Shown here one piece after another: positions 7,959 through 24,478 of a stretch of DNA of 27,870 bases; within the stretch, counting starts at the first letter, position 1; each line of letters begins with the position of its first letter. Made by a program: the position numbers and the translations under genes. Source of the stretch: Candidatus Iainarchaeum sp. (GTDB lineage: Archaea > Iainarchaeota > Iainarchaeia > Iainarchaeales > GCA-2688035); contig JAFCCL010000012.1 in the NCBI GenBank assembly GCA_017610205.1, positions 1 to 27,870 of the forward strand, read 5' to 3'. The notes under the pieces were generated by a model that worked only from the letters and a program-made list of their open reading frames with translations, ran no database searches and was not told where the DNA came from.

Positions 7959-8097
7959 AAGTTATTTAAACAACAAAAGCCATATAATTAATAATGAACA
8001 AAGTTAAGGCAGAAAAAAAGTGCAATTGTTGCTGTTGCCACTAAGCGCCCAGCTTACAGCTTGACTTTGTTTGAAAACTGTTTGTAGGGTGATTTTT

Positions 8098-9006
8098 TTG
8101 AAACTAGAGACAACTATATCAGATGAAAAAGGTTCTGTTCTGAACGCGATAGGCAATACTCCGTTAATTAGGATTGGAAACGTGTTTGCAAAGCTTGAAA
8201 GTGTTAATCCAAGCGGAAGCATAAAAGACAGAGTCGCCTTTGAAATAATAAAAGAAGCTGAAGGAAAAGGCGAGCTGCAGAAAGGGTATACAATTGTTGA
8301 AGCAAGCAGTGGAAACACAGGCATTTCCCTTGCAATGGTTGGGGCAGCCAAGGGCTACAAAGTAAAAATTGTGATGCCTGAAAATATGAGTGAGGAAAGA
8401 AAGCAGTTAATGAAAGCTTTTGGCGCAGAACTCATTTTGACATCAAAAAGCGGCAGCCTGAAAGAAGCTATAAGCAAGGTAGAAGAACTTGCCAGAGAAA
8501 AAAAGACATTTTATGCAAGGCAGTTCAGCAATCATGCAAACTTGAGAGCGCAGGAAAAAACAGGGAAAGAAATATTTAACGAAATTGGGGCAGTTAACGC
8601 GGTTGTTGCAGGTGTTGGAACAGGCGGAACATTAATGGGAATTTCAAAGGCAATGAAGGAACAGAACCCAAAAGTTAAGGCAATTGCTGTTGAGCCAGAG
8701 GAAGCGGCAGTAATGTTTGGCGGCAGTAACGCAAGAATCGGAGAACATAAAATTCAGGGAATTGGCGACGGCTTTATTCCAAAACTTGTTGATATGAAAA
8801 AAGTTGACGAAGTTTTTACAGTAAAAAGCAAGGAAGCTGTTGAGATGGCAAGAAAGCTTGCAAGAGAACATGGATTGCTTGTGGGAATAAGCAGCGGGGC
8901 AAACATGCTTATAGCATTAAAAATGGCAAAGAAATATGGCAAGATTGCAACTGTTTTACCTGACAGAGGAGAAAGGTATTTGAGCATGCATTTGTTCAAA
9001 GAATAA
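8098..9006 (+). CDS. cysK: cysteine synthase (O-acetylserine sulfhydrylase family, PLP-dependent)
   Basis: IGNTPL, KLESVNPSGSIKDR, EASSGNTG, GVGTGGT, HKIQGIG, GISSGAN, PDRGERYLS; TTG 8098 chosen because GGTGA lies just upstream (ORF open from 8071). Confidence 0.93.
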   Translation: MKLETTISDEKGSVLNAIGNTPLIRIGNVFAKLESVNPSGSIKDRVAFEIIKEAEGKGELQKGYTIVEASSGNTGISLAMVGAAKGYKVKIVMPENMSEERKQLMKAFGAELILTSKSGSLKEAISKVEELAREKKTFYARQFSNHANLRAQEKTGKEIFNEIGAVNAVVAGVGTGGTLMGISKAMKEQNPKVKAIAVEPEEAAVMFGGSNARIGEHKIQGIGDGFIPKLVDMKKVDEVFTVKSKEAVEMARKLAREHGLLVGISSGANMLIALKMAKKYGKIATVLPDRGERYLSMHLFKE

Positions 9007-9042: not shown

Positions 9043-9113
9043 GCGGGGGTAGCAGAACGGTTATGCACCGGCCTGCAGAGCCGAGGAAGAGGGTTCGACT
9101 CCCTTCCCTCGCT
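9043..9113 (+). tRNA. tRNA-Cys (GCA)
   Basis: Acceptor GCGGGGG/CCCTCGC, anticodon arm CCGGC-CTGCAGA-GCCGA, T arm GAGGG-TTCGACT-CCCTT, discriminator U typical of tRNA-Cys; CCA not encoded. Confidence 0.95.
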
Positions 9114-9160
9114 TGGGGAAAGCAAAATCTTAAATAAAAAGGAAACAATTAAAGATTAGG

Positions 9161-9724
9161 ATGAACTTCAAAATACTTGTTTTGATTACTATTTTGCTAG
9201 TTGTTATTCCAATAGCAAGTAGTGTTGCACTTGTAAGAAATTGCAGAATAATAGAAAATCCGCAAAATTTGGAAGCAAGTTGTAAGAATGGAAACATTAT
9301 ACTTGGCATTGAAATTGAAAATGTAGAAACTTTGGAACACCCTCCAAATTTCAATAACAACGAACGCATTGCTTTTCCTCCCAACACTACTATTTTAGAA
9401 ATTCGCCCTCCAGATTTAAGCAACAGTGAATGCTTTGATTTGTTTTCCAACACCATTATTTTAGAAACATGCCGTACTCTTCCAGATGGAGACTACAAAT
9501 TCAAAATAAACGATAAGTATTTGCTAACTGTAAATGTTTTTACGGAAGGCGTGGCTGCCTCTTGCCCTGGTTTCGCATGGATGATTTTGCCTTCGATTGT
9601 TGTATTTTTGGCAGGCATAGCGGCAGCAGTTAAATTAGCAAGAAGAAAAAGATTAGCATTAGCAATCCTTGTCTTAGTAATTGCAACATTTATTGCAGCG
9701 CTTTTGTTTCCTATCTGCATTTAG
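9161..9724 (+). CDS. hypothetical membrane-anchored protein (cassette 1 cargo)
   Basis: N-terminal signal/TM, Cys-containing soluble domain, two C-terminal TM helices separated by ARRKR. Confidence 0.75.
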   Translation: MNFKILVLITILLVVIPIASSVALVRNCRIIENPQNLEASCKNGNIILGIEIENVETLEHPPNFNNNERIAFPPNTTILEIRPPDLSNSECFDLFSNTIILETCRTLPDGDYKFKINDKYLLTVNVFTEGVAASCPGFAWMILPSIVVFLAGIAAAVKLARRKRLALAILVLVIATFIAALLFPICI

Positions 9725-9763
9725 AATCCGCTTTAATTTAGCTTCTCCAAAAAAAAACATTCT

Positions 9764-9852
9764 ATTAAATCAACTTAGCTTCACAATGATATTAAATTCG
9801 GGGCACAAAACAGGTGTGCGCTCTATACTCAGAGTTTGACTCCCCCTCGCTT
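9764..9852 (+). repeat. cassette-boundary repeat R1 (arm + tRNA 3' fragment)
   Basis: ATTAAATCAACTT...TTAAATTCGGGGCACAAAACAGGTGTGCGCTCTATACTCAGAGTTTGACTCCCCCTCGCTT. Confidence 0.9.
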
Positions 9853-9907
9853 AGCTTGTTGATCAAATAAAACATATATTTATAAGCTAATTATACCAAT
9901 ATAACTA

Positions 9908-10138
9908 GTGGTGATTGAATTGGTTGAAATTACTTCACAAGTAAGGCAATGGGGCAGGTCTGTTGGCGTCGTGATTCCAAAAGAAGCAGCAGAAAAGGCA
10001 CATATCAAGACAGGCGATAAAATAAGACTCTTAATAATGGGAAAAAATCCACTAAGAGAAACCTTTGGAATACTGAAAATGAAAAGGACTACCAAAGAAA
10101 TTCTGCAAGAAGTTGACAGGGAAGGATGGGATGAGTGA
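9908..10138 (+). CDS. AbrB/MazE/SpoVT-type antitoxin
   Basis: VRQWGRSVGVVIPKEAAEKAHIKTGDKI swapped-hairpin motif; true start may be TTG 9920 after GGTGA; overlaps the PIN gene. Confidence 0.88.
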   Translation: MVIELVEITSQVRQWGRSVGVVIPKEAAEKAHIKTGDKIRLLIMGKNPLRETFGILKMKRTTKEILQEVDREGWDE

Positions 10139-10499
10139 ACAAGCATACTTCTTTGACACATACGCCTTCTTTGAAATAATAAGAGGCAACCAAACATACG
10201 AAAAATACAAAGATGCAGGAGCAATGACAACAGTATTCAACCTTGCAGAACTAAACTATGGACTCAAAAAAGAGACAAGCAAAGAAAAGGCAGATAAGAT
10301 AACTGACAAGTATTTTTCACTGTTGGTAGAAGTCACTGCCAAAGATTTAAAGGATGCAATGGACCTAAAAACTAGGAACAGAAAACTCTCAATTCCAGAC
10401 GTAATTGGATACACCGTTGCGAAAAGCTATGACGTGAAATTCCTAACAGGAGACCAAGAATTTAAGAAAATGCCAAACGTAGAATTTGTAAAAAAATGA
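10131..10499 (+). CDS. vapC: PIN-domain VapC toxin
   Basis: FFDTYAFFE, NLAEL, LSIPDVIG, LTGDQEF acidic PIN motifs; ATG 10131 overlaps the antitoxin stop. Confidence 0.92.
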   Translation: MSEQAYFFDTYAFFEIIRGNQTYEKYKDAGAMTTVFNLAELNYGLKKETSKEKADKITDKYFSLLVEVTAKDLKDAMDLKTRNRKLSIPDVIGYTVAKSYDVKFLTGDQEFKKMPNVEFVKK

Positions 10500-10524
10500 G
10501 AACTAAAGCATTTCAATCAGAAAT

Positions 10525-10548
10525 GGGTTCGGCCCCGCCCCCTCGCTT
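10525..10548 (+). repeat. cassette-boundary repeat R2 (tRNA T-arm/acceptor fragment only)
   Basis: GGGTTCGGCCCCGCCCCCTCGCTT vs tRNA GGGTTCGACTCCCTTCCCTCGCTT, 19/24 identical by manual alignment. Confidence 0.85.
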
Positions 10549-10633
10549 GACTTAAAGCCATTTGGCAGTTACCGAAAGGTTTTAAATATGTTTTAGGTAT
10601 GAATTAGTATGTAATTAGTACGCAGGTGATTTA

Positions 10634-10900
10634 ATGTATGAAACTGTAACAGTTGTCGGAGAAAGAGGCCAAATTACTATCCCCAAGATTATTAGGGAAA
10701 AACAGGGATTGGGAAAAAAGGATAAAGCAATCGTTAAGATAGAAAACGGCAAGATAGTGGTTGAAAAAGCCTTGAGCCAGAAGGAAAAAGAAAAATTAAT
10801 GAAAGAGTTTTATATAAAATACTCCAAACTTAATGAAAAGGTTGCTGAAGAATGGAAATATTCAAGCAAGGAAGCGGATGAGATGTTGGATGAATATTAA
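10634..10900 (+). CDS. AbrB/MazE-type antitoxin
   Basis: VGERGQITIPKIIREKQGL AbrB motif; acidic C-tail; overlaps mazF. Confidence 0.9.
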   Translation: MYETVTVVGERGQITIPKIIREKQGLGKKDKAIVKIENGKIVVEKALSQKEKEKLMKEFYIKYSKLNEKVAEEWKYSSKEADEMLDEY

Positions 10901-11237
10901 AAGAGGCAGCATATTTTTGGCAAATCTTGAACCAGGTCTAGGTTCTGAACAAGGAAAAATTAGACCTTGCCTCGTCATACAAAACGATATTGCAAACGAG
11001 TTCAGTCCAACAACAATAGTTGCACCAATTACTTCAACAATACCTAACAAGCATTACCCTACAATAGTTATAATTGAACCACAAGAATCAGGTCTTAAAA
11101 AAACAAGCACTGTACTATGCAACCAAATCAGAACTGTTTCAACCAAACACAGAATGATAAAAAAACTTGGCACGCTAAAGCCAAGCACAATGAAAAAAGT
11201 TGACGAAGCACTAAAAACAGGCCTTGCTTTGGAATGA
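10890..11237 (+). CDS. mazF: MazF/PemK-family endoribonuclease toxin
   Basis: MNIKRGSIFLANLEPGLGSEQGKIRPCLVIQND, IVAPITS, LCNQIRTV; ATG 10890. Confidence 0.95.
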   Translation: MNIKRGSIFLANLEPGLGSEQGKIRPCLVIQNDIANEFSPTTIVAPITSTIPNKHYPTIVIIEPQESGLKKTSTVLCNQIRTVSTKHRMIKKLGTLKPSTMKKVDEALKTGLALE

Positions 11238-11253
11238 AAGGAGAGGAAACTTT

Positions 11254-11499
11254 TTGGTTAAAATAATTGCCAATGTTACGAACAAGGAACTTGATGCGTT
11301 GGAAAATCAAACACTATGCTGGAACCTATGCAAAAAGCACAGGGCAGTGTTGGACGCAAGTGAGAAAGAAATGTTTGAAATCACACAAACATGCAAAAAG
11401 TGCTTGAAGATAAACAGGGAACTGACAAACACGAACTTGCATTTGTGGAGTAAACTAGTAACAGCATACCTTAAGGCAACAAAAAAAGGAAACAAGTAA
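11254..11499 (+). CDS. small Cys-rich hypothetical protein, possible metal binder
   Basis: CWNLCKKH and CKKC motifs; TTG 11254 follows GGAGAGG (ORF open from 11224). Confidence 0.6.
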   Translation: MVKIIANVTNKELDALENQTLCWNLCKKHRAVLDASEKEMFEITQTCKKCLKINRELTNTNLHLWSKLVTAYLKATKKGNK

Positions 11500-11513
11500 C
11501 AAGGCAATCATCC

Positions 11514-11602
11514 TTAAATCAACTTCCCAGCACTATGTCTTTAATTTGGGCACAAAACTGTTGCGCGCTTTATACTCAGAGTTTAAAGCCCACCCTCCGC
11601 TT
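11514..11602 (+). repeat. cassette-boundary repeat R3
   Basis: TTAAATCAACTTCCCAG...GGGCACAAAACTGTTGCGCGCTTTATACTCAGAGTTTAAAGCCCACCCTCCGCTT, followed by GGGAA like the tRNA trailer. Confidence 0.9.
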
Positions 11603-11681
11603 GGGAAAATTGAGCAAAGCGAGTATGTGTTTAAACAGTATGTTTAAATACACTTTGCATGGTGATTCTTTTGGTGATTTA

Positions 11682-11933
11682 ATGGTTAAAACACTCACAA
11701 TAAAGGACAAAGTTTATGATGAACTGACAACAATTAAGGGCAGGAAAGAAAGCTTTTCAGACTTGTTTGAAAGGCTTGCAAAAAAAGAGAAAAAAGGAAT
11801 AAGGGAGTTTGCTGGATTCCTTTCAAAGGAAACTGCCGAGAAGATGAAAAAAGACATTGCCAGGTGTAAAAAAGAAGACATAAAACTAGAGGATAAAAAA
11901 AGGAAAAGGCTCGAGAAATTATGGTTGTCTTAG
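11682..11933 (+). CDS. vapB: archaeal VapB-family antitoxin
   Basis: MVKTLTIKDKVYDELTTIKGRKESFSDLFERL and FAGFLS; ATG 11682 after GGTGA. Confidence 0.9.
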   Translation: MVKTLTIKDKVYDELTTIKGRKESFSDLFERLAKKEKKGIREFAGFLSKETAEKMKKDIARCKKEDIKLEDKKRKRLEKLWLS

Positions 11934-12304
11934 ACACTGACGTGCTAATAGAATTTAGCAAAGGAAATTCAAAAGTAGAGAAAAGAATAAAACAACTGCA
12001 ACAAGTCGAAGAGATTTCAACAACAATATTCAACTTAGAAGAATACCTGTTTGGAATCTTCAAAAATGGGCAAAGAGAAGAAATTGAAGAAGGAAAAAAG
12101 TTTCTAAACAGGATAAAACACTATGACTACACAAAAAAAGAACTTGAAACAATAACCAAAATAAGAGTAAAACTGGAAAAAGAAGGAAAAAAAATAGGAC
12201 CATACGACGAATGCATTGCAGGAATATGCGTTTCAAAAAACGAGCCACTTTTCACATTAAACAAAAAGCACTTTGAAAGAGTGAAAGAATTAAAGCTCAT
12301 ATGA
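11921..12304 (+). CDS. vapC: PIN-domain VapC toxin
   Basis: VLDTDVLIE, NLEEY, IGPYDECIAG, FTLNKKHFERV. Confidence 0.93.
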   Translation: MVVLDTDVLIEFSKGNSKVEKRIKQLQQVEEISTTIFNLEEYLFGIFKNGQREEIEEGKKFLNRIKHYDYTKKELETITKIRVKLEKEGKKIGPYDECIAGICVSKNEPLFTLNKKHFERVKELKLI

Positions 12305-12360
12305 ACTACACATTCCAAGCAAATAGTTCGGCCAGTGGTCTTCTTTTTTAAAACAAGTCC

Positions 12361-12450
12361 ATTAAATCAACTTCCCAGTATAATTATTCTAATTCGGAGC
12401 ACAAAACCTGTGCGCACTCTATACTCAGAATTTAAAGCCCACCCCCGCTT
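12361..12450 (+). repeat. cassette-boundary repeat R4
   Basis: ATTAAATCAACTTCCCAG...AATTCGGAGCACAAAACCTGTGCGCACTCTATACTCAGAATTTAAAGCCCACCCCCGCTT. Confidence 0.92.
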
Positions 12451-12512
12451 CAAATTTTTTTAATTAAAAATAAGCAATATATTTAAATACACATACATAC
12501 ACAGACTATCTT

Positions 12513-12737
12513 ATGAGCACTAAAACAATTTCAATTACTGAAGAGGCCTATGACAGGCTGGACAGCAGGAAAAAGGAACGGGAAAGTTTCAGTGAAGTGA
12601 TAAAAAGGCTTACAGGAAAGCGAAGCCTAACTGAATTTGCAGGAATTTTCTCAAAAGAAGAAGCGGCAGAACTGGAAAAGAATATCAGGAAAGGAAGAAT
12701 TTCTGCAACGAAAAGGCTTGAAAGGATTGGGATCTGA
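12513..12737 (+). CDS. vapB: archaeal VapB-family antitoxin
   Basis: MSTKTISITEEAYDRLDSRKKERESFSEVIKRL, LTEFAGIFS. Confidence 0.93.
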   Translation: MSTKTISITEEAYDRLDSRKKERESFSEVIKRLTGKRSLTEFAGIFSKEEAAELEKNIRKGRISATKRLERIGI

Positions 12738-12742
12738 ATCAA

Positions 12743-13132
12743 ATGATTCTTGACACAAGCTTTCTTGTGGATTTGCTGAGAAATAACCATGCAGCAGTAT
12801 CCAAAATAACGGAAATTGAAAAACAAAACGAACCAGTTGCAACAACAACAGTAAGTGTTTTTGAGATATGGCAAGGTCTGCCAAAAAAGAGCAAGGAACA
12901 GCAAATCGAAAAAACCATTGAACTATTCAAATCAATAAATGTTTTAAACCTCGATTTTGACTCCGCGATAGAAGCAGGAAATATTCAACGAAAATTAACA
13001 AGAGCAGGGCAAAAAATTGAGCCACAGGACGCAATGATTGCAGGGATAGCAAAAACGAGAAGACAGAAAGTCCTTACAAGGAACATTAAACACTTTGAAA
13101 GAATAAATGATTTGGAAGTTGAAAGCTATTGA
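12743..13132 (+). CDS. vapC: PIN-domain VapC toxin
   Basis: MILDTSFLVD, SVFEI, DAMIAGIA, LTRNIKHFERI. Confidence 0.95.
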   Translation: MILDTSFLVDLLRNNHAAVSKITEIEKQNEPVATTTVSVFEIWQGLPKKSKEQQIEKTIELFKSINVLNLDFDSAIEAGNIQRKLTRAGQKIEPQDAMIAGIAKTRRQKVLTRNIKHFERINDLEVESY

Positions 13133-13161
13133 AAGAGATGCTAAAACCAGACCATGCAGCA

Positions 13162-13227
13162 ATATTAAATTCGGGCACAAAACCTGTGCGCACTCTATAC
13201 TCAGAATTTAAAACCCTCCCCTCGCTT
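13162..13227 (+). repeat. cassette-boundary repeat R5 (5'-shortened arm)
   Basis: ATATTAAATTCGGGCACAAAACCTGTGCGCACTCTATACTCAGAATTTAAAACCCTCCCCTCGCTT. Confidence 0.92.
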
Positions 13228-13253
13228 AAGAAATATCAAATGAAGGTTTATAT

Positions 13254-13273
13254 ATAACTATAGCTATAGTTAT
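13254..13273. promoter_or_regulatory. perfect 20-bp palindrome, candidate antitoxin operator next to a TATA box
   Basis: ATAACTATAG|CTATAGTTAT adjoining TTTATATA, 13 nt before ATG 13287. Confidence 0.65.
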
Positions 13274-13286
13274 GTAGGTGAATTAT

Positions 13287-13484
13287 ATGCAAACTACTAT
13301 TCCTTTGGAAAAAGAAACAGTACAGGTTTTGGAGAAATTAAAGAGCAAGTACGCAGTAAGCTCTTACGACAAGCTAATAAAGGAAATGATAAAAAAGGAA
13401 ATAAAAATGCCTAAAAGCCTGTTTGGAACACACCCTAAAATGAGCGAATTTAAGCGCGAAGCGGAAGATTTCCATGAATTATAA
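13287..13484 (+). CDS. ribbon-helix-helix-like antitoxin
   Basis: MQTTIPLEKETVQVLEKLKSKYAVSSYDKLIKEM and SLFG; overlaps the downstream PIN gene. Confidence 0.8.
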   Translation: MQTTIPLEKETVQVLEKLKSKYAVSSYDKLIKEMIKKEIKMPKSLFGTHPKMSEFKREAEDFHEL

Positions 13485-13863
13485 AAACCTGCTGGACACT
13501 TTTGCATGGGTTGAATACTTCAGGGGCACAAAAAAAGGCGAAATAGTCAGAGACTGTATCAAACAAGGGAAAGTATTTACTCCAACAATAGTATTAGCCG
13601 AACTCTCAGACGTCTATGAAAGAAAGAAAGTGCCAAACTGGGAAAGAGACCTGGCATTTATAATTTCAAAAACAACAATTATTGATTTGAATCAACAACT
13701 GGCAATAGAAGCAGGAAAAACAAAACGCGAGATTAGAAAAAAATATAAAACAAAATTCGGTTTGGCTGATGCAATAATTCTTGCAACAGCTAGAAAAATG
13801 AACGCAAAAGTAGTAACAGGCGACACGCACTTTGAAAAAATAAGCAATGTTACATTCCTTTAA
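13474..13863 (+). CDS. vapC: PIN-domain VapC toxin
   Basis: LLDTFAWVEY, IVLAEL, GLADAIILATA, VTGDTHF. Confidence 0.95.
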   Translation: MNYKNLLDTFAWVEYFRGTKKGEIVRDCIKQGKVFTPTIVLAELSDVYERKKVPNWERDLAFIISKTTIIDLNQQLAIEAGKTKREIRKKYKTKFGLADAIILATARKMNAKVVTGDTHFEKISNVTFL

Positions 13864-13864
13864 A

Positions 13865-13890
13865 GGATTCGACTCCAGCCCCCAAGCGTT
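13865..13890 (+). repeat. terminal divergent tRNA T-arm/3' fragment R6
   Basis: GGATTCGACTCCAGCCCCCAAGCGTT keeps TTCGACTCC of the tRNA T loop, 1 nt after the last vapC stop. Confidence 0.6.
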
Positions 13891-13976
13891 TAATTTAAAT
13901 ATTAGAAAATGCCTTTTTTATAATGAGAATTTATGACTAAAAGAAGAGTTGATCACGGCGTCTTAGGGATAATGGA

Positions 13977-14312
13977 GTGATTGCTGTTGGAAAAAGTATT
14001 GGCAGAAAAGGCACTAATGGCAAAATAGTAGCGGAAACTAATGGAACAGCCGCTACTGGGCCAAAAAAGCAAAGAAGATTGCACACTATAGATAATGTTC
14101 CTGCAAAGAGTAGAGCTAAAATAACTAAAATTAGAAACAACTACAAGAAGTGGGGAGCGCAAAAAAAAAACAGTGTTGCAGGAAGCAGTATTATTGCAGC
14201 ATGCAACAAAAATAAAGCCCTTATTAACATTGTTATGGCAACAATGCTACGCAACAAAACACACACAGAACTAAGAAATAGTATTAGAAAACAGATACAA
14301 GCCAGCCTGTAA
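13977..14312 (+). CDS. hypothetical basic protein
   Basis: 111-aa K/R/N-rich ORF filling the gap; GTG start uncertain. Confidence 0.5.
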   Translation: MIAVGKSIGRKGTNGKIVAETNGTAATGPKKQRRLHTIDNVPAKSRAKITKIRNNYKKWGAQKKNSVAGSSIIAACNKNKALINIVMATMLRNKTHTELRNSIRKQIQASL

Positions 14313-17048: not shown

Positions 17049-19622
17049 ATGAACGATTACGGAATGGAAGCGCCTGAAATTCTCTGGTTTAGGGAAATCA
17101 GAATAAAGGACATTTCAAGCGTTGGAGGAAAGGGAGCTTCTTTGGGAGAAATGGCAAACCACAATTTTCCGGTTCCGCCAGGGTTTGTAGTAACAGCCCA
17201 AGCATACTTCAGATACATTAAAGAAACAGGCATAAAAGACAGGATTGTAAACAAAATAGATGCAATTGATGTTGAAAATACTGAAGAACTTGCAGGAGTA
17301 AGTGAAGAGGTAAGAAACATTATTCTTGCAACACCAATATCTGAAACTCTTTCAAACGAAATCAAAAAGGCTTACGGGAAACTTGGAGAAAAAAAGCTTG
17401 CCTGGCTTACAAGCAGTGAAGCCGAATTTGTTGCAGTAAGAAGCAGTGCAACAGCAGAGGATTTGCCTGAAGCAAGTTTTGCAGGCCAGCAGGAAACCTA
17501 TCTCAATGTTAAAGGAAGAGAAGCTTTGGTAAAAACCGTTCAAAAATGCTGGGCTTCGCTTTTTACAGCAAGAGCAGTTTATTACAGAAAAAAACACGGG
17601 TTTTCCACAGAACAAGTAGGTATTGCAGTTGTTGTTCAAAAAATGATTAATGGACAAACCTCAGGAATAATGTTTACCGCAGAGCCAACAGGAGACGAAA
17701 CAAAAATTATTATAGAAGCAGGATTTGGTTTGGGTGAAGCAATTGTTTCTGGAAGCATCACACCAGACACATATACTGTTGACAAAGGCAGTTTTAAAAT
17801 CATTGACAAAAAGATTCACAGCCAAACGTTTAAGATTGTAAGAAAGGGCAGGGACAACATCAGGGAAAAACTTGGTTCCACTGTTGCAAAAAAACAAAAA
17901 ATTGACGACAAAGCAATTATGCAGCTTGCAAAACTTGGAAAGCAAATTGAAAACCATTACAAAAAGCCACAGGACATAGAGTGGACTATTGAAAACAAGG
18001 AACTTTTTATTGTACAAAGCAGACCAATAACAACACTTGGATTGAAAACAAGTGTTAGCAGTGAAGAAAGGAAAAAAAAGCTTGAAGCATTGAAGGACAA
18101 GATTGTATTGGAAGGTCTTGCCGCGTCACCAGGTGTTGCTTCAGGCAAAGTAAAGGTTGTAAGGAATGTTGCACAAATTGCCAAGGTTAAAAAAGGAGAC
18201 ATTCTTGTTTCACAAATGACAAGCCCTGACTGGGTGCCAACAATGAAAAAAAGCAAAGGCATAATAACCGACGAAGGCGGGGTAACATGCCATGCAGCAA
18301 TTGTAAGCAGAGAATTGGGAATACCATGCGTTGTAGGAACAGGAAGGGCAATGGAAATTCTGGAAGATGGAGATGCGGTAACTGTGAATGGCTATGATGG
18401 CTTGGTATACAAGGGAACTGTTGAACTTGAAAAACCAGAAGAGGTAAAAATTGAGGTTATAAAGATTTCAGATATTGAGCCTGTTGAAAAAGTTATAGAA
18501 GAAGTAAGCAAAGTGGCAAAAGAGGAAAAGCCTGTTGTTGAAGAAAGCCCTGAAAAAAAACGCGAAAAGGAATTTGCAGAAAGGGTGAAAGAAGAACGCA
18601 GTGAAATAATGGAAAAGGCTCCTGAAGAAGCAAAAGAAATAGTTGAAGAATTTGGAGATAAAAATGCAGAGGACATGCCAAAAGAAGAACAGGAAGATGA
18701 AGAGGGAAAAATTATTGACCTGCTTAGGAAAATTGCACCAAAGGTTAAAGTAAATGTGGCATTGCCAGAGGCTGCAGAAGCAGCGGCAAAAACAAATTCC
18801 GACGGGGTTGGACTGCTTAGAGCAGAACATATGATTACGTCATCCGGAAAGCATCCTGCAGAATTTATAAGAAACGGAGAATCTGAAGAGCTTACAAAAG
18901 TTATCAAGGAAGGAGTCAAAAAAGTTGCAGCCCTATTCAAAGGAAAGCCTGTGTGGTACAGAACATTTGACGCAAGAACCGATGAATTCAGGGAACTAAA
19001 AGGAGGAGAAAACGAGCCAGAGGAAGACAACCCAACACTTGGATGGCATGGAATAAGGCGTGATTTGGACATGCCTGAACTGTTAAGGGCACAGTTCAGG
19101 GCAATTAAGGAATTGCATGGAGAAGGGCTTTACAATGTTGGAGTAATGCTTGCATTTGTGCAAAGTGCTGAAGAAGTAAAAGCTGCAAAAAAGATAGCAA
19201 TTGAAGAAGGGCTTGAACCAGGAAAAAGCACGCAATTTGGAGTAATGGTTGAAACACCTGCATCAGTTTGGGGAATTGACGAAATTTTGAAAGAAGAAAT
19301 TGACTTTATTTCATTTGGAACAAACGACTTAACACAGCTTACTTTAGGAATTGACAGAAACAATGAACACATTCAAAAAAATTTCACAGAACTGCATCCG
19401 GCAATCCTCAGAAGCATCAGGCACGTTATAAAAAAGTGCAGAAAGGCAGGAGTTATAACAAGCATTTGCGGACAGGCAGGAAGCAAACCAGAAATGGTAA
19501 AACACTTGGTTGAATTCGGAATTGACAGCATTTCCGCAAACATTGACGCAGTTGAAAAAATAAAGAAAATTGTGCTTGCAGAGGAAAAAAAGCTTATTTT
19601 GGGAATGGAGCACAAAGGATAA
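17049..19622 (+). CDS. ppsA: phosphoenolpyruvate synthase (pyruvate,water dikinase)
   Basis: VGGKGASLGE, VAVRSSATAEDLPEASFAGQQET, PQDIEW, TCHAAIVSRELGIP (phospho-His), GVGLLRAE, SFGTNDLTQ, SICGQA. Confidence 0.96.
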   Translation: MNDYGMEAPEILWFREIRIKDISSVGGKGASLGEMANHNFPVPPGFVVTAQAYFRYIKETGIKDRIVNKIDAIDVENTEELAGVSEEVRNIILATPISETLSNEIKKAYGKLGEKKLAWLTSSEAEFVAVRSSATAEDLPEASFAGQQETYLNVKGREALVKTVQKCWASLFTARAVYYRKKHGFSTEQVGIAVVVQKMINGQTSGIMFTAEPTGDETKIIIEAGFGLGEAIVSGSITPDTYTVDKGSFKIIDKKIHSQTFKIVRKGRDNIREKLGSTVAKKQKIDDKAIMQLAKLGKQIENHYKKPQDIEWTIENKELFIVQSRPITTLGLKTSVSSEERKKKLEALKDKIVLEGLAASPGVASGKVKVVRNVAQIAKVKKGDILVSQMTSPDWVPTMKKSKGIITDEGGVTCHAAIVSRELGIPCVVGTGRAMEILEDGDAVTVNGYDGLVYKGTVELEKPEEVKIEVIKISDIEPVEKVIEEVSKVAKEEKPVVEESPEKKREKEFAERVKEERSEIMEKAPEEAKEIVEEFGDKNAEDMPKEEQEDEEGKIIDLLRKIAPKVKVNVALPEAAEAAAKTNSDGVGLLRAEHMITSSGKHPAEFIRNGESEELTKVIKEGVKKVAALFKGKPVWYRTFDARTDEFRELKGGENEPEEDNPTLGWHGIRRDLDMPELLRAQFRAIKELHGEGLYNVGVMLAFVQSAEEVKAAKKIAIEEGLEPGKSTQFGVMVETPASVWGIDEILKEEIDFISFGTNDLTQLTLGIDRNNEHIQKNFTELHPAILRSIRHVIKKCRKAGVITSICGQAGSKPEMVKHLVEFGIDSISANIDAVEKIKKIVLAEEKKLILGMEHKG

Positions 19623-21706: not shown

Positions 21707-24478
21707 TTGGTGAAAACAATGGCAAACAATGGAATTGAAGAGATTGCAGAAGCCGATATGGTGGTTTTCAAAAAGAAACTGCGAAAGATGTCTGCTTTCA
21801 AAGGAAAGGGAACAGAACTTATTTCGCTTTATCTTCCGCCTGACGTAGACAGGAGTCTGGTCACAGGACAATTGACGGAGGAAATGTCACAAAGCAGCAA
21901 TATCAAAAGCCCAACCACAAGAAAGAACGTGCAGGGGGCTTTAAGAAAAGTACAGAATTTTCTTAAATCAATAAATTTTAAGCTTCCAGAACAGGGAATT
22001 GTTGTTTTCTGCGGAAATGTAAGCCAGCAGGAGGGAAAGCAGGACATACAGCTTTTTACATTAAAACCAGTGAAAAGACTTAACACAAAGCTTTACTGGT
22101 GCGATTCAGAATTCCATTTAGGTCCATTGCAGGAAATGGCACAGCCCTCAGAAGTTTTTGGAATTTTAACAATTGACAAAAATGAGGCAACAATTGCAAT
22201 CCTTATAGGAAAAAAATACGAAATTTTGGGACATTTTACAAGCACAGTTGCAGGAAAGACAAGGGCTGGGGGGCAATGTCTTTTAGGAGATTCTCTGATT
22301 CAGCTTAGTGACGGAAACATTGTGAAGATAAGTGAGGTTGGCAATCCAGCAGCTGTCAAAAGTGTTGACTTTGGAAACTATTCAATTCAAGATTCGTTTA
22401 TTTCAAATAAGTGGAAGGAAAACAAGTTTAAGGCATTAAAAATAATTACAAGATACCCACAGATGAGTATTACTTGTTCCAAAGACCATAAATTCTTTTG
22501 CTGGAACCAAGGTAAAATAGAAGAAAAAACAGCCGCAGAACTAAAAGAGAATGAATTTCTTATAATGCCTGAAAGAATCCAAGTCACAAGCAACATCCAA
22601 CATATTAATACAAATTTCTTTAACAGTTATATTATTTCAAAAAAAGGACTTAAAGAATTGATTAGGACAAGAAAGGAACTTGAATTTAGCCAAAAAGAAT
22701 TTGGAAAAAAGATTGGATTGCATCAAGCTTCTGTTTCACGTTTTGAGTTAGGAAGATTTAATCCACGAATTAGCTATTTGAAAAAAGTTTGCCAGGGATT
22801 GAACTTGGATGCAGACCGATTTATTTCAGAATTTTGCAAGCCAAAAAGCGATTTGCGCTTGCCGGCAGAAGTTGATACAAATCTTGCTCAAATTATAGGT
22901 TATCTTCTTGGTGACGGAAGCATTGAGGATGAAAGGTTAAATTTCTATGAAGAAGACAGGGAAACCGCAATCTTTTATGAAAGGCTTTTGAGAAAAGTGT
23001 TTAATGCCAAGATAAGAACAGGATTTAGAGAAAGTAAAAACTATCATGAAATAAGATGCTACGGAAAACCAATTGTTAGATTGATAAGGCAGGAGTTTCC
23101 AGAGGTAAACAAAGCCAGAACATCTGTCATTCCCAAAAAGATACTGAAAAGCGAAAATGGGATTGTAGCAGCCTTCCTAAGAGGATTATTTGACGCAGAA
23201 GGCTATGTGACAAAAAGAGGGCTTTCGGCAGGAATGAATAATAAAATGCTTGTTAAGCAGATACAGATTGCTCTGCTAAGGTTTGGCATATTATCATCTG
23301 TACACGAATATGATAACAGGAGAAACCCTTATTCAAATAATACAAAATTTACTATAGATGTAACTGAAAGAAAATCTTTAAAAATATTCAAAAAAGAAAT
23401 TGGATTTTCTTATTCAAAAAAGAAGGAAAAATTAAAAGCAACAGTTAAAAGCAAGGGCTTTAGAAGCTGCGTTAGGCAAATATTTATATCAGGAAAAGAA
23501 GTCAGGCGAATGTTTGAAACAGAGGGATTTAATACAGAAGCATTTCCAAAAGTTTCAGACTTTTTTAGAAACCAACGGATGATTGGAAAAGAAACCTTTA
23601 GAAAATTCATAATATCACAAGTTAAGAATAATAAGAAGTTGAAAGAAAAGTTTGAAACAATATTCTCAGTTCCGTTACTTCCAGTTAAAATTCATAAAAT
23701 CAAAAAAATTAGTTTGCCAACAAAAATGCATGACATAACCGTAAAAAATTCGAATTTTCTTGCAAACGGAATAGTAGTTCACAACAGCGCACACCGCTTT
23801 GAAAGATTAAGAGAAGAAGCAGCCCAAAGCTTTTACAAAAAAATAAGCGAAAAAATGAATGGCATATTTTTGCCATATGGGGAAAATCTTAAGGGACTGA
23901 TTATTGCAGGGCCAGGCATTACAAAAAATTATTTTCTAAACCAGGAACTAATGGACAACAGACTTAGGAATATTATTATCGGAAGCATTGACACAGGTTA
24001 TACTGATGAATCAGGAATAAGGGAAACTGTTCAAAAAAGCGGAGAGCTTCTGAAAGGAGCTGAAATAACAAAGGAACGCAAAAACCTTGAAAAATTTTTT
24101 GAGGCAGTTGTAAAAACAGGTTTGGGAACCTATGGACAAAAAGAGGTTGAAAAAGCATTGCTAATAGGACAGGTTGACACAGTTTTGGTAAGCGAAGAAA
24201 TAGAATGGCAGATTTACAAATTCAAATGCGACAACTGCGAAACAGAACACGAAATTGTTGTAAAAGACCAATCTGATAAAGAAGCCAAAAAATTTAAATG
24301 CGAAAAATGCGAAAGTACCAATGCAGAACTTGTTGAGCAAATTGATTATATTGACTGGATAATGGAAAAGGCGAAAAGCACTGGCGCAAAAACAAAAATT
24401 ATAAGCACTGAAACCCCTGAAGGAGAGCAATTTTACAGGGGTTTTGGCGGCGTTGGTGCAATACTTCGATATAAGTAG
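21707..24478 (+). CDS. prf1: peptide chain release factor aRF1 precursor containing an intein
   Basis: GTELISLY, NIKS, YWCDSEF, GGQ|intein|SAHRFERL, C-terminal GFGGVGAILRY; exteins total 420 aa. Confidence 0.96.
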   Translation: MVKTMANNGIEEIAEADMVVFKKKLRKMSAFKGKGTELISLYLPPDVDRSLVTGQLTEEMSQSSNIKSPTTRKNVQGALRKVQNFLKSINFKLPEQGIVVFCGNVSQQEGKQDIQLFTLKPVKRLNTKLYWCDSEFHLGPLQEMAQPSEVFGILTIDKNEATIAILIGKKYEILGHFTSTVAGKTRAGGQCLLGDSLIQLSDGNIVKISEVGNPAAVKSVDFGNYSIQDSFISNKWKENKFKALKIITRYPQMSITCSKDHKFFCWNQGKIEEKTAAELKENEFLIMPERIQVTSNIQHINTNFFNSYIISKKGLKELIRTRKELEFSQKEFGKKIGLHQASVSRFELGRFNPRISYLKKVCQGLNLDADRFISEFCKPKSDLRLPAEVDTNLAQIIGYLLGDGSIEDERLNFYEEDRETAIFYERLLRKVFNAKIRTGFRESKNYHEIRCYGKPIVRLIRQEFPEVNKARTSVIPKKILKSENGIVAAFLRGLFDAEGYVTKRGLSAGMNNKMLVKQIQIALLRFGILSSVHEYDNRRNPYSNNTKFTIDVTERKSLKIFKKEIGFSYSKKKEKLKATVKSKGFRSCVRQIFISGKEVRRMFETEGFNTEAFPKVSDFFRNQRMIGKETFRKFIISQVKNNKKLKEKFETIFSVPLLPVKIHKIKKISLPTKMHDITVKNSNFLANGIVVHNSAHRFERLREEAAQSFYKKISEKMNGIFLPYGENLKGLIIAGPGITKNYFLNQELMDNRLRNIIIGSIDTGYTDESGIRETVQKSGELLKGAEITKERKNLEKFFEAVVKTGLGTYGQKEVEKALLIGQVDTVLVSEEIEWQIYKFKCDNCETEHEIVVKDQSDKEAKKFKCEKCESTNAELVEQIDYIDWIMEKAKSTGAKTKIISTETPEGEQFYRGFGGVGAILRYK
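22277..23785 (+). mobile_element. intein (503 aa) with XRE-like HTH and LAGLIDADG homing endonuclease
   Basis: Block A CLLGDSLI, block B CSKDHKF, IGYLLGDGS and FLRGLFDAEG, block F/G MHDITV..NFLANGIVVHN followed by Ser+1. Confidence 0.95.

Follow-up and report, generated by a model that had tools for sequence, protein, structure and literature searches.

The DNA analysed here (the window) is the whole of contig C9 of a Candidatus Iainarchaeum sp. genome, 27,870 nt from an assembly of 1.37 Mb in 24 contigs that is 92% complete (G000 below), and our subject is an array of small gene units that follows its tRNA-Cys gene. The genes of the window are archaeal in kind, among them aRF1, diphthamide synthase, TruD and inositol-1-phosphate synthase. 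Its one tRNA, found by both ARAGORN and Rfam (56 bits in Rfam), is tRNA-Cys(GCA), which is also the sole tRNA-Cys gene of the genome. Immediately 3' of this gene lie six co-oriented units, U1 to U6 (Table 1), each of which ends in a repeat, R1 to R6, that resembles the last part of the tRNA. By direct reading of the sequence, the string ...CGCTT ends at 9114 in the tRNA and again at 9852 (R1), 10548 (R2), 11602 (R3), 12450 (R4), 13227 (R5) and, in degenerate form, 13890 (R6). An initial annotation, made from the letters alone, had described six co-oriented units here, each closed by a degenerate copy of the tRNA tail and each holding one gene or small operon and no recombinase. That description was borne out throughout: its unit lengths agree with ours to within 1 nt, the tail copies are supported by a repeat finder, by MAFFT alignment and by the cassettes of relatives, and the contents are as Pfam scans of the window's open reading frames (ORFs) report them.

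Table 1. Features of the tRNA-Cys array and its distal flank in the window.
Feature	Coordinates	Strand	Content
tRNA-Cys(GCA), intact	9043..9113	+	proximal anchor, attL side; last ~24 nt copied at each unit's end
U1, 738 nt	9115..9852	+	TATA-like box ~9129-9136; ORF 9161-9724; long repeat R1 9762-9852
U2, 696 nt	9853..10548	+	MazE/AbrB-type antitoxin 9908-10138; PIN 10113-10499; short repeat R2 10520-10548
U3, 1054 nt	10549..11602	+	MazE 10634-10900; PemK/MazF ORF 10833-11237; 91-aa ORF 11224-11499; long repeat R3 11511-11602
U4, 848 nt	11603..12450	+	VapB 11682-11933; PIN 11921-12304; long repeat R4 12359-12450
U5, 777 nt	12451..13227	+	VapB 12513-12737; PIN 12743-13132; long repeat R5 13134-13227
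U6, 663 nt	13228..13890	+	antitoxin-like ORF 13278-13484; PIN 13474-13863; short degenerate R6 13864-13890, distal end of block
Distal flank (B' side)	13893..14312	+	111-aa ORF 13977-14312; G001 homologue directly 3' of tRNA-Cys

Allowing up to 3 mismatches, the 14-mer CCCTCCCCTCGCTT matches the window seven times against an expectation of 0.96, a count that none of 100 shuffles reached. Six of these matches fall on the plus strand at five sites of the array (the tRNA, R1 with two overlapping matches, R2, R3 and R5), and the seventh lies on the minus strand at 17840; R4 and R6 deviate by indels and are supported by alignment. We found that the repeats take two forms. The long ones (R1, R3, R4 and R5) measure ~92 nt and consist of a conserved arm of ~65 nt, which the initial annotation had not described, followed by the tRNA-like ~24 nt. 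R2 and R6 are the tRNA-like part only, placed immediately 3' of the PIN stop codon. Weak as these two are, we regard them as genuine, because orthologous cassettes elsewhere bear clean tRNA 3' fragments in the same positions (GGGTTCGACTCCCCCCCTCGCT in G005 and GGGTTCAACTCCCTCCCCTCGCT in L029).

The family is tightly confined. Across 18 long-type copies from 9 sources the block GTGCGC.CTATAC.C.G.GTTTAA is near-invariant, and within the 1.37-Mb genome of G000 the long repeat occurs only at the tRNA-Cys locus (blastn-short and nhmmer). On this restriction we rejected a scattered miniature inverted-repeat transposable element (MITE); equally, the repeats do not belong, in this genome, to a known MITE or attC family dispersed away from tRNAs, an outcome that the initial annotation had said would count against it. 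We compared G000 with six genomes of the same genus (G001 to G006), with G007 from another genus, and with four metagenome stretches (L027, L029, L031 and L032). A repeat model built on sequence only found the family in 4 of 61 genomes, namely G000 and three of the six others in its genus, and in none of the 54 outside the genus. A degenerate pattern that covers 8 of the 11 copies known at that stage served for wider scans; among 185,579 species genomes its hits were confined to records of two of these four genomes. In metagenome contigs the same pattern returned six stretches, the four named above being new, and the repeat was not found in viral contigs by two pattern scans.

The cargo is simple in composition. 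U1 encodes a putative membrane protein of 187 aa with a hydrophobic C terminus and no Pfam family, and U2 to U6 are five type II toxin-antitoxin (TA) operons. The likely start codon of the PemK/MazF toxin in U3 is the ATG at 10890, and the small antitoxin-like ORF of U6 gives a weak match to DUF7557. Given that the PIN toxins inside the array share only 24-32% protein identity with one another, we rejected tandem duplication of a single TA module; the non-coding repeats, at 60-78% DNA identity among themselves, have outlasted the cargo they accompany. A TATA-like box (TTTAAATA, TTTATATA or TTTATAA) can be read in each unit ~25-50 nt 5' of the first start codon, frequently accompanied by a GGTGA ribosome-binding motif, and every cassette has its own predicted promoter of the TATA type. 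A Pfam scan of 30 distinct ORFs of the window found no recombinase, a whole-genome Phage_integrase search gave no match on contig C9, and neither an integrase nor an integrase fragment is present in any of the six units.

Comparison with relatives shows the site both empty and occupied. In G001 the tRNA-Cys ends at oriented position 1701, and the homologue of the sequence that follows R6 in G000 begins within about 12 nt: positions 1714-2121 of G001 align with 13893-14294 of the window (64%, E 7e-10), and the 111-aa flank ORF is 52% identical between the two genomes over 108 aa (E 4e-28). The G001 and G000 junctions come into register within ~10 nt of where the tRNA and R6 end, from which we take 9115-13890 to be a single inserted block whose limits are exactly the tRNA end and R6. 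The second pair is G004 and G005: a stretch of 147 nt that begins with the final bases of the tRNA in G004 matches, at 91.8% identity, the G005 sequence that begins with the final bases of the last long repeat in its array. An unoccupied site, which tandem accretion at a tRNA leads one to expect, was therefore found in each of two comparisons. In G002, G006 (contig C25) and L031 a ThiI-like gene upstream and a pyruvate, phosphate dikinase (PPDK) gene downstream are syntenic with the window, and the interval between tRNA-Cys and PPDK holds PRiA4_ORF3, SHOCT/GRAM, nucleotidyltransferase-like, HAD and TrmB genes together with other TA pairs, the differing cargo being separated by the same repeat family. 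The initial annotation had named two results that would tell against it, identical content and order in relatives and indel breakpoints unrelated to the repeats; we found instead that content and order differ and that the cassettes are bounded exactly by the tRNA-like repeats.

We consider it likely that the locus arose by tandem accretion of six miniature, non-autonomous integrative elements at tRNA-Cys of this uncultivated archaeon with a small genome, through a tyrosine integrase acting in trans. Each cassette would comprise its own TATA-type promoter, one gene or TA operon and, at its distal end, an attR-type site formed by ~24 nt copied from the tRNA 3' end, to which four of the six units add the ~65-nt arm on the 5' side. 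The array would grow by repeated site-specific integration at the 3' end of tRNA-Cys, each event restoring the tRNA and moving older units distally, which would make U6 the oldest. The integrase would be supplied in trans, and the TA cargo would tend to protect the units from loss. We infer which class of enzyme acted, that it did so in trans, in which order the units arrived and whether they still move; the anatomy, the exact boundaries relative to empty sites, the variation of content among species, the reappearance of cassettes elsewhere and the lack of recombinase genes in or beside the arrays are observed.

Several of the cassettes recur in other arrays. Orthologues of U2 are found in G005 (81-87%), on contig C14 of G006 (77%) and in L029 (79%), and an orthologue of U3, without the 91-aa ORF, lies on the same G006 contig (74%). 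U4 and U5 stand next to each other on contig C25 of G005 (73% and 84%), and U5 is also the second cassette after tRNA-Cys in L031 (77%). U6 has orthologues in L029 (75%), on contig C73 of G005 (81%) and in G007 (74% in DNA), where it directly follows tRNA-Cys and where its PIN and antitoxin retain 68% and 79% protein identity; its presence in this position in another genus fits an array in which the oldest cassettes lie farthest from the tRNA. In shared cassettes the homology begins just 3' of the core and stops at the stop codon or at the arm. Over 494 nt the U2 copies of G006 contig C14 and L029 agree at 94.1%, against 69.7% and 71.6% for the flanking genes, and this cassette is the sole apparent sign of exchange more recent than speciation. 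In G005, U2 lies after U4 and U5, opposite to its place in G000, and the order there is ambiguous. Between U4/U5 and U2 on contig C25 (L078 7480-7583) the array contains a second copy of ~100 nt from upstream of tRNA-Cys, which stops exactly at the would-be tRNA start and is followed by the U2 cassette instead, and the reversed order may be due to segmental duplication.

Recombinases are encoded elsewhere in the genome. G000 carries a XerA equivalog on contig C14 (275.7 bits against a cut-off of 220), as well as three intact integrases (390-435 aa) with 38-44% identity among themselves and a further, broken copy. Two of the intact genes start ~60-70 nt after tRNA-Arg(gcg) and tRNA-Ser(tga), and the third is on contig C24. 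The tRNA-Arg island (C18:40153-44465) has its integrase and a displaced tRNA tail (attR) 4.2 kb downstream, and the tRNA-Ser(tga) island (C3:179013-202154) is built alike, with the displaced tail 23 kb downstream. A third island, at tRNA-Asp (C13:40230-42360), is 2 kb long, has no integrase and carries a Na+/H+ antiporter; it is 91% identical in G004, and in G003 its genes are on a different contig from tRNA-Asp. The attR ends of these three islands share one arm (E 1e-28 to 1e-34, with a joint profile built from these same three arms). By analogy with the related integrases of the tRNA-Arg and tRNA-Ser islands, a tyrosine integrase acting in trans is the best-fitting enzyme class for the tRNA-Cys array. 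An SSV-type split integrase, with part of its gene in the arm, was rejected on inspection: the arms have no start codon with an open frame through the core, and the genome's own integrases have start codons of their own ~60-70 nt beyond the tRNA.

Two further observations belong beside these islands. In G000, duplicated tRNA 3' ends also occur at distances of 66-541 nt on the downstream side of tRNA-Leu(tag), tRNA-Lys, tRNA-Ala(ggc) and tRNA-Ser(gga) (C10:103626, C14:10537, C16:89169-89658 and C3:205765), and these short duplicates may represent scars, or empty units, that similar insertions left. The arm of the tRNA-Cys array resembles that of the Arg, Ser and Asp attR ends over a motif of ~22 nt (TTAATTAACTTCCTTGCACTA versus TTAAATCAACTTCCCAGCACTA), to which the likeness is limited and whose spacing from the core is similar in both. 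With a mixed motif profile of 24 nt the untrained Ser arm was retrieved at E 0.045; kinship between the two arms is not established, and we treat the shared motif as a hint only.

A number of observations weigh against accretion by a dedicated enzyme in trans. Profiles built from the Cys arms or from the Arg/Ser/Asp arms alone fail to retrieve the other set (E up to 50). In the family, integrases of the kind found in G000 occur in 12 of 23 genomes, and of the 23 integrase loci we checked 22 with ARAGORN, L053 being left out because it overlaps L044. None of the 22 adjoins tRNA-Cys, and a tRNA adjoins the integrase gene in only five (tRNA-Arg, tRNA-Asn in two loci, tRNA-Thr and tRNA-Ser). An integrase specific to tRNA-Cys was sought and not found among these loci, in the contigs examined or, by two pattern scans, in viral contigs; no array examined contains an integrase, and G002, whose assembly is 79% complete, has an array and only a Xer-type recombinase. 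Apart from U2, shared cassettes have diverged about as far as their flanking genes (73-84% versus 67-83%); most of them look like old residents, and for this reason current activity is unproven. The type of arm is decoupled from the cargo, which a simple model of excision and reinsertion does not predict: U2 has a short end, a true tRNA fragment, in G000 and G005 and a long-type end of 55 nt in G006 and L029; U4 has a long end in G000, and in G005 it closes with 23 nt that copy the tRNA tail exactly. The arrays of G006 contig C14 and L029 are not at a tRNA and adjoin an exosortase-like gene. Finally, all of the sequences are metagenome assemblies, and contigs break inside the arrays of G004 and G005. 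The initial annotation's proposal of minimal cassettes added serially by a trans-acting integrase therefore stands in part: discrete bounded units, insertion relative to an empty site, variable content and integrase-free arrays all agree with it, and no integrase was found that could be tied to tRNA-Cys, those of the genome being at tRNA-Arg, at tRNA-Ser and on contig C24.

The arrays away from tRNA-Cys show some features of their own. That of G006 contig C14 occupies L021 9893-11613 on the minus strand. L029 contains two repeats ~200 nt apart with no gene between them, and this spacer joins sequences that flank both ends of the G006 array; a TATA-rich string of ~16 nt is common to both of its junctions. 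The region of G000 that matches the exosortase-side array falls at the ends of contigs C4 and C12.

The decoupling of arm and cargo raises the potential that homologous recombination and gene conversion, with the ~92-nt repeats and the tRNA tail as partners, produced and reshuffled the array along with segmental duplication, and that no dedicated recombinase operates today. The second copy of the tRNA-Cys upstream region within the G005 array is a sign of such duplication, the relative order of U2, U3 and U6 is kept wherever they are shared, and homologous recombination has been put forward as a means of module exchange among tandem elements of archaea, according to the sections consulted of PMC8371274. 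However, this explanation does not account for unrelated cargo, with PIN toxins as far apart as those of the array, each bearing a copy of the tRNA tail, nor for exact boundaries at the tRNA 3' end in two empty and occupied pairs, and repeats at the identities found here would be poor substrates. We therefore judge it highly improbable as the origin of the array.

Alternatively, the units may be stripped remnants of larger, integrase-bearing elements that inserted at tRNA-Cys and were never mobile as minimal cassettes, deletions having spared the attR end and a loss-resistant TA module. Such a history equals the three-step origin stated for cis-mobilizable elements (CIMEs) in the parts of PMC5704250 that we consulted, and few-gene remnants at archaeal tRNAs, tRNA-Cys included, appear in the excerpts seen of PMC3119797. 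The full integrase-bearing islands at other tRNAs of G000 speak for it, as does the divergence of most shared cassettes, which is similar to that of their flanks. Yet the six units are compact, their start codons lying about 45-135 nt beyond the preceding core, with a TATA-like box and without debris of pseudogenes, and orthologous cassettes in different genomes start right after the core, so that the proximal boundary is not ragged. The genes that stand beside the attR arm in the integrase islands are TrmB-type regulators and others rather than TA pairs, and the U2 cassettes of G006 and L029 are 94% identical between flanks of ~70% identity. We regard decay from larger elements as unlikely, and as the most serious competitor to the accretion of miniature elements.

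The gene-sized, co-oriented and TA-rich cassettes also recall integrons, in which an intI gene stands beside the array and the attC sites are imperfect palindromes that fold as single-stranded hairpins, the cassettes being mostly promoterless and expressed from a common promoter at the integrase end. We folded four repeats as single-stranded DNA on both strands and obtained z scores of -2.40 to +0.64 relative to shuffles, with one copy weakly below the shuffles on both strands (z -2.4 and -2.0). RNAalifold returned a recurrent stem of just 5 bp without compensatory change: none of its pairs is compensatory across the 18 copies, and pairing as good is reached by 246 of 500 shuffles. We accordingly rejected an attC-like structure for the repeats. 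Because they fold no better than shuffles and show no covariation, the conserved arm looks like a putative binding sequence for a protein that acts on double-stranded DNA. The long-type copies mimic the T-loop poorly (GAGTTTAAAGCC versus GGGTTCGACTCC), which would otherwise inactivate the only tRNA-Cys, and strand exchange would for that reason have to fall within the last ~13 nt of the tRNA tail. At the T-stem, G000 has a T where most relatives have a C.

In the units of relatives, small hairpins follow several of the cores (L021, L068, L022 and L069). They share the conserved loop GAGC(G/A)AAGCGAG, and their stems differ yet are complementary (GGAGTC/GACTCC, GGGTATC/GATACCC and CCCATTCC/GGAATGGG). 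Such hairpins are rare in G000, with 8 matches to the motif genome-wide and one clear hairpin (C1:~13698).

A true integron with IntI and attC sites, or alternatively a set of dif-like modules that use the host XerA, which the genome does encode, could in principle produce an array of this appearance. Integrons have been reported in archaeal metagenome-assembled genomes (MAGs), as given in the consulted portions of PMC9668308. Nevertheless, there is no integron integrase by the array or on its contig, and the best score for that family (TIGR02249) anywhere in the genome is XerA itself, at 227 bits against a cut-off of 265. Folding at the level of shuffles, with the one weak exception noted, the lack of compensatory pairs in the 5-bp stem and the predicted promoters of the individual cassettes all argue in the same direction. 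The dif layout is an inverted repeat of 11-6-11, and by eye no repeat of this type is present in the conserved block. We give the integron and XerA explanations next to no credence. The label "integron-like" used in the initial annotation holds as an analogy; it does not extend to the sites, which lack attC-like folds, or to the cassettes, which have predicted TATA-like promoters of their own.

We also considered single-strand transposition by a Y1 transposase of the HUH type (IS200/IS605 or REP-associated), with insertion 3' of ...CGCTT. The genome has 7 matches to the Y1_Tnp family and none to a serine recombinase, and all units start right after, and end in, ...CGCTT. Elements of the IS200/IS605 or REP type have conserved subterminal hairpins at both ends that the transposase recognises, but on inspection of the post-core sequences we found no conserved hairpin at the left end of the units, and covariation is lacking in the small stem near the right end. 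There is no Y1 gene within or beside the arrays examined, and what the units share is 24 nt copied from the tRNA tail rather than a target of 4-5 nt. Transposition of this kind is, in our estimate, exceedingly improbable.

A more far-reaching reading is conceivable and, to us, doubtful: that a gene-cassette platform analogous to integrons, built from other parts, is at work in this small-genome archaeal lineage. The tRNA gene would then be the fixed insertion point, and the cassettes would carry a dedicated double-stranded site of ~90 nt, composed of the arm and the mimic of the tRNA tail. A recombinase encoded elsewhere would capture, excise and reshuffle single cassettes, and the arrays away from tRNA-Cys, in G006 contig C14 and L029, would be secondary landing sites.

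The surroundings of the array vary as well. A cysteine-synthase-like PALP gene (window 8071-9006, plus strand) separates the ThiI-like gene from tRNA-Cys in G000 and G003, whose proteins are 90% identical. G002 and G006 lack it at this place, as do, by alignments, G001, G004 and L031; the side upstream of tRNA-Cys is thus variable too. The tRNA-Cys gene is interrupted after position 37 by an intron of about 80-155 nt in G006 (L020 5465-5694), G001 and G007 (L067, L068), and is intronless in G000, G002, G003, G004, G005 and L031. Since arrays follow both intron-bearing and intronless forms, the intron is no bar to insertion at the 3' end here. Further downstream, the PPDK gene of G005 (L022 5458-7019; window position 17467/17471) has an in-frame insertion of ~1.56 kb relative to G000 within a 1381-aa ORF, which is probably an intein. 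The aRF1 (eRF1) gene of the window (21707-24478, plus strand; 923-aa ORF) contains an intein with LAGLIDADG homing-endonuclease and HTH_3 domains. The public record behind G005, L026, is titled as a candidate bacterial phylum, and that of G006, from the same genus, as "MAG: archaeon"; given its archaeal gene content, the bacterial label on L026 looks wrong.

If the units move singly, they would constitute a second, independently built route to gene capture in the style of integrons, and one in archaea with very small genomes, where the gain and loss of accessory genes are little known. The substrate pair would then be a defined one, the ~90-nt site and the tail of tRNA-Cys. On the conservative reading, the locus offers a natural series of TA modules piling up at a tRNA whose 3' end is rewritten with each insertion. 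For annotation, it is a warning that assemblies can be interrupted where tRNA-tail fragments stand in arrays, of which the contig ends of G004 and G005 are examples.

The initial annotation stated that it knew of no description of this organisation, which is too strong, given that serial integration in tycheposons, CIMEs and tandem archaeal elements have all been described. Sedentary chromosomal integrons are rich in TA cassettes, and integrons have been reported in archaeal MAGs (PMC9668308 and PMC13108822, in the sections consulted). The likeness to integrons lies in ordered, co-oriented, gene-sized cassettes that each end in a site, in a fixed insertion point, in TA cargo and in variable content. 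The array differs from them in having no adjoining IntI and no attC-like folds, a tRNA anchor instead of attI, and predicted promoters of its own. In archaea, elements reuse one tRNA site and some integrated elements have no integrase (PMC8371274 and PMC6563490), and few-gene remnants at tRNAs include a case at tRNA-Cys in Acidianus (PMC3119797). In the portions consulted of these papers, the cases described are proviruses, plasmids or remnants, and no array of single operons with a dedicated arm is among them.

Two bacterial systems come closer. Tycheposons of Prochlorococcus integrate at tRNA 3' ends, push older elements inward and leave partial tRNAs between units (bioRxiv 10.1101/2020.12.28.424599, as far as the sections consulted describe them). 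They share with our array serial integration at the tRNA 3' end, partial tRNA copies between units and the persistence of degenerate remnants. Those sections also give tycheposons a tyrosine recombinase and replication modules of their own, with fragmented integrases among the remnants, whereas the six units here contain neither an integrase nor a fragment of one and are single operons with mainly TA cargo. The CIMEs related to ICESt1 and ICESt3 in Streptococcus are defined, in the consulted sections of PMC5704250, by the lack of integration genes and the retention of attL and attR, and they stack in tandem at a tRNA end. The array is CIME-like in that it starts at an intact tRNA, closes every unit with a displaced 3' copy on the far side, lacks genes for integration or transfer inside the units and retains both att sites. 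The resemblance thus consists of integrase-less, att-flanked units stacked at a tRNA, on which the integrase of another element would have to act. CIMEs, according to the same sections, are decayed integrative and conjugative elements or integrative and mobilizable elements of several kb, usually one or two per locus, while the array consists of six units of 0.66-1.05 kb, four of them with the ~65-nt arm, with no helper at the locus and in an archaeal host. Literature searches, covering the sources in part, returned no array of six gene-sized, integrase-free units with a shared arm, TA operons and relocated orthologous cassettes. We conclude that tandem accretion at tRNAs is already known from these systems, and that what is new in this array, as far as those searches reach, is its gene-sized and wholly integrase-free form.

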